A stretch of DNA of 64,000 nucleotides, taken from Candidatus Thorarchaeota archaeon (GTDB taxonomy: Archaea > Asgardarchaeota > Thorarchaeia > Thorarchaeales > Thorarchaeaceae). How positions within the stretch are numbered: the first letter of the stretch is position 1; each line of letters begins with the position of its first letter. The notes under the pieces were generated by a model. The model was not told the DNA's origin, made no database searches, and worked only from the letters and a program-made list of their open reading frames with translations. Shown here piece after piece: positions 16,008 through 17,416 of the stretch. Both the position numbers and the translations under genes were made by a program. The DNA lies in assembly GCA_048882325.1 (NCBI GenBank), contig JBHLRS010000010.1, positions 39,745-103,744 on the forward strand, read 5' to 3'.

Positions 16008-16130
16008 ATGGCAAAAGAAGGCGGAATCTATGTCTGTGATGTCTGTCAGCAAGTTATTGAAGTCAAGAAATCTGGAGTAGGTACTCTTGTTTGTTGTAAC
16101 CAACCAATGAGATTATACGAAGGAGATTGA
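16008..16130 (+). CDS. Desulforedoxin (stand-alone FeS4 Dx domain), 40 aa, not in the ORF track
   Basis: MAKEGGIYVCDVCQQVIEVKKSGVGTLVCCNQPMRLYEGD with CxxC...CC signature; GGAGGA SD at 15994. Confidence 0.88.
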   Translation: MAKEGGIYVCDVCQQVIEVKKSGVGTLVCCNQPMRLYEGD

Positions 16131-16208
16131 CCTTCCCAAATTTCACACTTGACAATGTTTATATCTACCCTAGCGGGGCGGAGCCAACACTTCTTGGGGT
16201 GTGTGAAC

Positions 16209-16766
16209 ATGATTGAAATACCCAGTGCTGTAATTCGAACTAGAGGTCTTCTTAACTTACGAGCATATTCTGTGAATGAAGTTCTGGAATATGACGATAG
16301 ATATGTGATGTATCCTACGAGGGACATCCTTGGTGAAATCAGCAAGTACGTTGTTTGGATACTCAAAGAACAGAAGGTTATCGGAGTTGCATATGTGAAG
16401 GATCTCGCTCGTGAGATCGAAGAAACAGAATCCCGAGGTGGAATGCTCGTTGGTGGAGAGCGTTTCACACCTGCAGCTAAGAAGATAGCAAAGATTTCAC
16501 GTGTTGAGCTTGTTGACGGTGGTTATGCATCATTCGACCTCTTTCAACATGAACTGGTTCCTACACACATCATCGCGGCTGAAGATGAGATTCAACTAGT
16601 TCTTGACCATTATGGGATTGAGAAAAGCAAACTGCCTCGAATTTTCAGGGATGATCCTGCTGTCAAAGTTTTAGGCGCACGACTTGGACAAGTTATCCGG
16701 ATCGAGCGTGATAGTCCAACAGCTGGAAAAACTTACTACTATCGGTTGGTTGTAGACTCAAACTAA
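16209..16766 (+). CDS. rpoH: RNA polymerase subunit Rpo5/Rpb5 with N-terminal jaw domain, copy 1
   Basis: HELVPTH, LPRI..DDP and SPTAG..YYYRLV assembly domain plus about 105-aa N-terminal domain. Confidence 0.9.
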   Translation: MIEIPSAVIRTRGLLNLRAYSVNEVLEYDDRYVMYPTRDILGEISKYVVWILKEQKVIGVAYVKDLAREIEETESRGGMLVGGERFTPAAKKIAKISRVELVDGGYASFDLFQHELVPTHIIAAEDEIQLVLDHYGIEKSKLPRIFRDDPAVKVLGARLGQVIRIERDSPTAGKTYYYRLVVDSN

Positions 16767-16840
16767 GCTAAAATTCCTTTTCAAAATCATTGATTTAACA
16801 ATGTTTATATCAATGGCTTTGAATCGAGTCGTTATCACGG

Positions 16841-17416
16841 GTGTTTTCTATCTTGTCAGAGCTACCTGAAATTCCAGCTATTGTACTTAAGACTCGGGCA
16901 TTACTTGCTCTTCGAGGATTTACTGTTGACGAACTTCTCGAGTATGATGATAGGTATGTCCTCCATCCTACCCGAGATTCTGAAAAAGGATTACTCAAAT
17001 ATGTTGTATGGATTCTGAAGGAGGAGAAGGTTGTGGGGGTAGCTGTAGTCAGAGAACTCGTAAAAGAGATGGAAGAAACAGAGTCTCAGCGAGGTATGCT
17101 CGTGGGTGGAGTTCGTTTCACTCCTGCATCGAGTAAATATGCGAGGGTATCTCGTGTTGAACTTGTAGAAGGTCATTACGCTTCCTTTGATCTGTTTGGT
17201 CATGAGATGGTCCCAACTCATGTAATAGCTGAGGAACCAGAGATTCAACTTGTTCTTGAGCACTATGGAATAAATAAGACACATCTTCCGCGAATCCAAA
17301 GCAGAGACCCTGCGGCACGTGTTCTTGGAGCTAGACCAGGTCAGGTAGTAAGAGTTGAACGTTCGAGCCCAACTGCAGGAATATCATACTATTATCGTCT
17401 AGTTGTCGACTCCTAG
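16841..17416 (+). CDS. rpoH: RNA polymerase subunit Rpo5/Rpb5 with N-terminal jaw domain, copy 2
   Basis: HEMVPTH, LPRIQSRDP, SPTAG..YYYRLV; clear paralog of the upstream gene. Start may be TTG 16853. Confidence 0.9.
   Translation: MFSILSELPEIPAIVLKTRALLALRGFTVDELLEYDDRYVLHPTRDSEKGLLKYVVWILKEEKVVGVAVVRELVKEMEETESQRGMLVGGVRFTPASSKYARVSRVELVEGHYASFDLFGHEMVPTHVIAEEPEIQLVLEHYGINKTHLPRIQSRDPAARVLGARPGQVVRVERSSPTAGISYYYRLVVDS

Follow-up and report, generated by a model that had tools for sequence, protein, structure and literature searches.

The 64-kb stretch of Candidatus Thorarchaeota DNA analyzed here (the window) carries a tandem pair of genes for Rpo5 (RpoH), the RNA polymerase subunit called Rpb5 in eukaryotes. 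The pair consists of two intact + strand open reading frames (ORFs) at 16209-16766 and 16841/16853-17416, and these were the only two Rpo5 genes found in the genome. Each encodes a long form of the subunit, in which the C-terminal assembly domain is preceded by an N-terminal domain that is related to the jaw module of eukaryotic Rpb5 and that appears to be an inactivated Mrr-type nuclease. Our favored explanation as a whole, namely that the sole two Rpo5 genes of this organism carry a jaw domain made from a dead Mrr domain, arose by tandem duplication, and give rise to two polymerase isoforms, is one that we consider fairly probable. If so, the single polymerase of this cell may exist in two versions.

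Gene A, the upstream paralog (16209..16766, + strand), starts with ATG and encodes 185 amino acids (aa). Gene B, the downstream paralog (16841..17416, + strand), encodes 191 aa if read from GTG at 16841 or 187 aa if read from TTG at 16853. The first-pass annotation of this DNA had described two intact ORFs here with characteristic motifs, and both the ORFs and the motifs (LRGF, KVVGVAVVRELVKEM, and GMLVGG..FTPA) were found. The proteins align without gaps and share 125 of 182 residues (69%), with 64% identity in the N-domain and 74% in the C-domain. Pfam Rpb5_C (PF01191) matched each protein with 87.7 bits (cut-off 23.5; E 4.3e-25), over positions 1-73 of the 73-position profile in gene A and 2-73 in gene B. 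The NCBIfam RpoH equivalog (NF007129; cut-off 83) matched the last ~75 aa with 94.9 bits for gene A and 88.6 bits for gene B. These matches identify the C-terminal part of both proteins (16530..16763 and 17183..17413, both + strand) as the RpoH/Rpo5/Rpb5 assembly domain, and membership of both proteins in the polymerase would be expected from it. Ahead of Rpb5_C, both proteins have an N-domain of ~107-114 aa (gene A, 16209..16529; gene B, 16841..17182; both + strand). The classical short archaeal RpoH (8cro_H, 4qiw_H, 7ok0_H; NF007129) has 77-84 aa, no N-domain, and a usual position at the head of an rpoH-B-A operon. The C-terminal 75 aa of the window proteins match it at equivalog level and in fold (template modeling score normalized to the target, TMt, 0.85-0.88); however, the window proteins differ from it by a 107-aa N-domain, by their two copies, and by a location that in relatives is megabases from rpoB.

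The genome (3.6 Mb, 89 contigs, 93% complete) gave exactly two Rpb5_C matches, which are genes A and B. Its rpoB lies on another contig (C58) and starts 284 bp from the contig end. A third, short rpoH, for which the first-pass annotation had suggested looking, was found neither in this 93% complete genome nor in the 283 bp before rpoB, and no RpoH-like ORF of any kind was present in those 283 bp. When translated, the minus strand of C58 1-283 gives a GFEPA-type string that recalls a tRNA T-arm; ARAGORN detected no tRNA.

Profile searches and a predicted fold together indicate that the Asgard Rpo5 N-domain and the jaw module of eukaryotic Rpb5 are homologs. A profile built from long Rpo5 proteins of Thorarchaeota aligned to human RPABC1 in one uninterrupted stretch (profile 42-181 to chain 67-209), which reaches deep into the eukaryotic N-module. 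A separate profile was made from the N-domains of 21 Asgard proteins, the window's two and 19 from 17 other Asgard families. When this N-only profile was compared to all PDB sequences, the top 11 matches were all eukaryotic Rpb5, with E values of 1e-8 for human Rpb5 (38 bits), 2e-7 for Arabidopsis NRPB5A (profile 5-94), and 8e-4 for yeast; no nuclease in that search scored better than E 10. The Asgard N-domain also aligned by hhalign with a protein that has three PF03871 (RNA_pol_Rpb5_N) repeats (P0144) at 91% probability, and LRGF was placed opposite DRGY. The AlphaFold2 (AF2) model of full-length gene B had a predicted local distance difference test score (pLDDT) of 89.6 and a predicted template modeling score (pTM) of 0.74. 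In a Foldseek search with this model, the top 34 matches were full-length Rpb5 chains of Pol I, II, III, and IV (E ~1e-14; score normalized to the query, TMq, 0.72-0.75; ~200-213 columns), and short archaeal H subunits covered the C-domain only. The C-domain of the model superposed on 8cro_H, 9bct_H, and 7ok0_H with root-mean-square deviations of 1.3-1.5 A and TMt of 0.86-0.88.

The order of domains is the same as in eukaryotic Rpb5/RPABC1/POLR2E (PF03871 + PF01191; 1dzf, 8uhd_E, 7vba_E, 7eu0_E), where a module of PD-(D/E)XK fold stands directly before the Rpb5_C globe. Shared features include R-G-Y/F at the end of helix 1, V-G-V, (F/M)TP(A/S)AK, and the whole-chain overlay. The motif at the end of helix 1 is LRGF in gene B and LRAY in gene A; its Arg never varies (21/21 and 35/35 Asgard sequences), and the Asp of eukaryotic DRGY is not conserved in Asgard N-domains. 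In eukaryotes, the DRGY motif that closes helix alpha-1 does not vary, and the R26E substitution in it kills yeast (PMC1802627). The resemblance to the jaw proposed in the first-pass annotation was therefore upheld as homology by the N-only profile, the full-length overlay, and the correspondence of R-G/A-Y/F to DRGY. In contrast to eukaryotic Rpb5, the archaeal protein is ~20-25 aa shorter and lacks the insertion between helix alpha-1 and the beta-sheet (a 14-residue gap against the PF03871 protein), stays below the PF03871 threshold while still matching Mrr_cat, and serves one polymerase rather than three, here from tandem genes.

PF03871 itself reached only E 0.026, and that in 2 of the 21 Asgard N-domains. 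Across 301 sampled Asgard genomes from 30 families, it had zero matches in the window's family and one borderline match (27.1 bits), which falls at the Rpo5 locus in a different family. That locus (L074/L075; G074 and G026, complete one-contig genomes; ~G026:C1:1464345-1464827) belongs to the sole sampled Asgard lineage whose Rpo5 N-domain is at the Pfam Rpb5_N cut-off (27.1 bits with neighbors), and its Rpo5 is possibly the most eukaryote-like version. Since both reverse profile searching and comparison of folds gave positive results, a PF03871 match was set aside as the decisive test of jaw-likeness.

The N-domain also has a clear relationship to Mrr-type PD-(D/E)XK nucleases. Mrr_cat (PF04471; gathering cut-off 21) matched all 21 Asgard N-domains above the cut-off, with a best E of 2.6e-12; gene A scored 26.5 bits, and gene B scored 29.9 bits as a whole protein and 31.5 bits as the domain alone. 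The inactive restriction endonuclease family NA-iREase1 (PF22722) matched all 21 Asgard N-domains too. A search of a library of 1.8 billion representatives with the N-profile returned 1723 proteins, many of which are true Mrr enzymes. Alignment with 13 true Mrr domains gave a collinear scaffold over the whole domain, with the shared blocks VGxxxVREL, G-hhh-T/G, FTxxA, and IELIDG-like. Within this scaffold, the catalytic DGGxD of Mrr is replaced by DDRYV(M) and QxK (QCK) by (V)WIL in the window proteins. The catalytic Lys is missing in 21/21 Asgard N-domains and the Asp in the window's proteins. The AF2 model of the gene B N-domain alone (pLDDT 90.9) has a fold like those of MspJI, AF1548, and EndoMS. 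Compared to Mrr_cat enzymes, the window's domains have lost the catalytic residues and are fused to a polymerase subunit rather than to a DNA-recognition or NTPase domain. The simplest reading is that the N-domain is a catalytically dead Mrr-type PD-(D/E)XK nuclease intermediate between Mrr and the eukaryotic jaw, and that the eukaryotic jaw is a further-diverged descendant of an Mrr-type domain recruited to Rpo5. The jaw part of eukaryotic polymerases thus probably arose in archaea. That eukaryotic Rpb5_N has a PD-(D/E)XK fold was established earlier, and the PF03871 family was given as Eukaryota-only (PMC3424549).

The long form is widespread rather than specific to this locus. Rpb5_C was present in 282 of the 301 genomes, and Rpo5 ORFs of ~180-246 aa were the rule in most sampled Asgard families. 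An N-domain of the window's type stood directly upstream of Rpb5_C in 144 genomes and 20/30 families. The short form (81-125 aa) was found in four Asgard families, one with 68 genomes, and none of those 68 had the N-domain partner (0/68). By these counts, the long form is the normal Rpo5 in most of the sampled Asgard families. Public records name the long-form proteins simply RpoH of Thorarchaeota or Heimdallarchaeota.

Some Asgard Rpo5-type proteins carry more than one jaw domain. P0133 (481 aa), P0149 (436 aa), and P0161 (378 aa) have two or three tandem jaw (Mrr-like) domains followed by a single Rpb5_C. P0140 and P0280 (349 and 498 aa; named Heimdallarchaeota) also have two or three tandem jaw domains; no Rpb5_C was seen in P0140. 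Other Asgard lineages thus have versions of the subunit with several jaws. P0144 (456 aa; ENA metagenome contig of 12.9 kb), the protein used for hhalign, has three bona fide PF03871 repeats (166 bits) and Rpb5_C; because Mrr_cat (51 bits) and the Asgard N-profile (78.5 bits) match it as well, it links the families. In P0157 (561 aa), another long Rpo5, part of a Cpn60/TCP-1 chaperonin (PF00118) separates the jaw domain from the end of Rpb5_C; fusion, insertion, or faulty assembly of the sequence could account for it.

Two copies of Rpo5 were found only in five genera of the window's family and in one unrelated genome. No genome outside the window's family had two Rpb5_C matches except that one (G300), which belongs to the short-form family. 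Both copies were present in 18/25 genomes of the window's genus. In maximum likelihood trees, the genus's upstream and downstream copies formed two sister groups, with Shimodaira-Hasegawa-like approximate likelihood ratio test support of 92 (79 rows) and 76.7 (61 rows), a pattern that suggests a genus-level duplication. A tree uniting the downstream copies of all five genera was not rejected (approximately unbiased test, p 0.35), and the 5' regions favor one old duplication event. One old duplication, followed by losses and a degree of gene conversion, seems more likely than five independent events.

The copies also appear to have been kept by selection. Among genus orthologs, the median ratio of nonsynonymous to synonymous substitutions (dN/dS), a rough figure here, was 0.10 (upstream copy) and 0.09 (downstream copy); by copy and domain it ranged from 0.09 to 0.15, and the N- and C-domains were alike (0.09-0.14). 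Among 35 long Asgard Rpo5 sequences, 12 residues do not vary, and neither copy has lost any of them. Both therefore look to be under purifying selection, with neither relaxed. The first-pass annotation had called the copies intact and diverged, and had raised relaxed selection as a possibility; the copies are intact, old, and at 69% identity diverged, and no relaxation was seen at ratios of ~0.1. As to the age of the duplication, which it had suggested estimating, synonymous sites between the copies are saturated, which leaves the event undatable from dS.

Each gene has its own predicted promoter. The 14-mer ACAATGTTTATATC, a B recognition element (BRE)-like sequence plus the TATA box TTTATAT, occurs at 16152..16165 (+ strand), with its end 44 nt from the gene A ATG, and identically at 16798..16811 (+ strand) ahead of gene B, and nowhere else in the window. 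The gene B element is kept before the downstream copy in relatives, and an TGACAATGTTTATAT element lies ~44 nt ahead of the start in every copy, upstream and downstream, including those of relatives. The start of gene A is placed at 16209 because the TTG at 16149, which would extend the ORF, sits upstream of the TATA box. A Shine-Dalgarno-like GGGGTG (16196..16201, + strand) lies 7 nt before this ATG, and GGGGTG or GAGGTG is kept at the same spacing in orthologs. For gene B, a Shine-Dalgarno-like GGGTG (16839..16843, + strand) lies 9 nt before TTG 16853 and shares bases with the other possible start, GTG 16841. Downstream copies of the same genus keep the pattern GGGTGTTTTCTAxxTTG, and GGTGT followed after ~9-10 nt by TTG is found before downstream copies in four other genera. 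Because of this comparative pattern, TTG 16853 (187 aa) is the likelier start of gene B. Upstream copies begin with ATG after GGGGTG or GAGGTG, and in all five genera the downstream ones begin with TTG (a few with GTG). Given this difference in start codons, the upstream copy is probably the major form and the more abundant of the two.

One locus departs from this arrangement. In L021 (G108:C167), the upstream and downstream genes have near-identical 5' regions, both with the TTG start context of downstream copies; the coding sequence of that upstream gene nevertheless groups with upstream-type orthologs. This mismatch is a sign that the tandem copies have undergone recombination or gene conversion with each other.

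Archaea have a single RNA polymerase, and each polymerase holds one Rpo5. In every archaeal and eukaryotic polymerase, the C-terminal globe of this subunit binds to the largest subunit. In our favored explanation, tandem duplication of a ~646-bp unit that included the promoter would have created the pair. Because the promoter lies inside the duplicated unit, each copy would be transcribed from its own BRE/TATA element. The N-domain would be the archaeal counterpart, and the probable ancestor, of the Rpb5 "lower jaw" module beside the downstream DNA. Both Rpo5 proteins would assemble into the polymerase and give two isoforms that differ only in the lower jaw. Since there is one Rpo5 per polymerase and both genes look functional, two isoforms are the most economical reading. 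We infer that both proteins are assembled with the jaw beside downstream DNA, that one copy is more abundant than the other, and that the isoforms have different functions.

Several results weigh against this explanation. Only 3 positions separate the paralog groups consistently, no consistent net-charge or paralog-specific surface difference was found between the copies, and nothing points to a distinct function of either copy. A subclade of the genus with four species in the sample (G103, G120, G188, G191) has the upstream-type copy only, with no second Rpo5 within its 2.4-2.5 kb loci; the second copy is therefore dispensable there. The dS values of ~1.4-1.7 are near saturation and make the dN/dS figures rough, and the genome in which the two genes were counted is 93% complete. 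With regard to the jaw, PF03871 had no match at E<=1 in either window protein; the first-pass annotation had looked to this family for confirmation, and what Pfam gives for both proteins is Mrr_cat. The N-profile also scores prokaryotic Mrr domains (47-57 bits) higher than human Rpb5 (38 bits), and in the model of the N-domain alone, the resemblance to yeast Rpb5 (TMq 0.62-0.65) is roughly as strong as that to EndoMS, MspJI, and AF1548.

The scarcity of consistent paralog-specific residues, the like charge, and the retention of all family-invariant residues in both copies would also be expected if the copies were redundant, that is, interchangeable in the polymerase and kept for dosage or for a split in expression through the ATG and TTG starts. 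The signs of exchange between copies at the G108 locus, where the upstream gene has a downstream-type 5' region, and the single copy in some congeners fit this view as well. However, identity between the paralogs is only 64% in the N-domain and 74% in the C-domain with saturated synonymous sites, and both types have been kept in 18 of the 25 genus genomes and in four other genera, which is long for pure redundancy. We regard redundancy, or a purely expression-level split, as a serious rival, and yet on these grounds a doubtful one. Alternatively, one copy could act outside the polymerase, competing for the docking site on Rpo1 or binding DNA by itself, in the role of an assembly factor, a decoy, or a free regulator, for example. 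Archaeal transcription paralogs can turn into regulators, as with Sulfolobus TFS4, a polymerase-bound negative regulator (PDB 7oqy title), and the weak TTG start of the downstream copy in all genera would suit such a role. The Rpb5_C domain is nevertheless equally strong and complete in both proteins, the same invariant residues are present, and constraint on the C-domain is similar in the two copies, so that this possibility seems quite remote. An active Mrr-type restriction nuclease on RpoH, for instance for polymerase-tethered defense or DNA cleavage, would agree with the Mrr_cat scores and with the many true Mrr enzymes among the profile matches, but it was rejected as extremely improbable because the alignment with true Mrr domains shows the QxK Lys and DGGxD Asp to be replaced, and the inactive family NA-iREase1 matches too.

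The pair and its jaw domain have partial parallels elsewhere. Plants likewise keep more than one Rpb5-type gene under selection (NRPB5/NRPD5 versus NRPE5; 7eu0_E, 8hyj_E), and plant Rpb5 chains were among the sequence and fold matches of the window proteins; however, plants have several distinct polymerases with assigned paralogs, whereas the archaeon has one. Rpo13 of Sulfolobales represents a different archaeal way to fill the lower-jaw position, with an unrelated small helical protein encoded by a separate gene.

The N-terminal module of Rpb5 has been described as typically eukaryotic (PMC1802627), and archaeal RpoH has been stated to have no N-terminal extension (PMC3906176). Our literature search, whose coverage was incomplete so that an earlier description is possible, found no description of the long Asgard Rpo5 or of the pair, and the portion available to us of a 2026 review that models Thorarchaeota Rpo5 made no comment on the N-domain. 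An Asgard N-module that is still Mrr-like would give the eukaryotic jaw a concrete origin, and a jaw-bearing Rpo5 would add an item of the transcription machinery to the eukaryote-like features of Asgard archaea. The tandem pair, separately promoted and apparently kept by selection, makes it testable whether an organism with a single polymerase can diversify it by swapping a peripheral subunit. A bolder version, in which fusion of an inactivated Mrr domain to Rpo5 in Asgard archaea and the later duplication led to two polymerase forms for different gene sets or conditions, appears unlikely to us. If true, the Asgard invention of the jaw and the two forms would be a prokaryotic precedent for the subunit-level specialization behind Pol I/II/III and behind the Rpb5 paralogs of plants and trypanosomes.

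The pair lies outside the rpo operon, as had been noted from the lack of rpoB or rpoA after it. In one relative with a one-contig genome, rpoB and rpo5 are at 0.28 Mb and 2.18 Mb; in a second they are at 3 kb and 1.50 Mb, and in three further relatives they are on separate contigs. The distance between the two genes in well-assembled relatives is thus 1.5-1.9 Mb where they share a contig, and Rpo5 is therefore detached from the rpo operon in the window's family. The neighbors of the pair have no link to transcription; they are a desulforedoxin-like mini-ORF, a convergent membrane protein gene, and CinA/MoCF, HD, and TatD genes. The mini-ORF (16008-16130, + strand; 40 aa) matches PF06397 (desulfoferrodoxin N-terminal / desulforedoxin domain) with E 1.3e-12, is below the usual ORF length threshold, and stops ~20 nt ahead of the gene A promoter.

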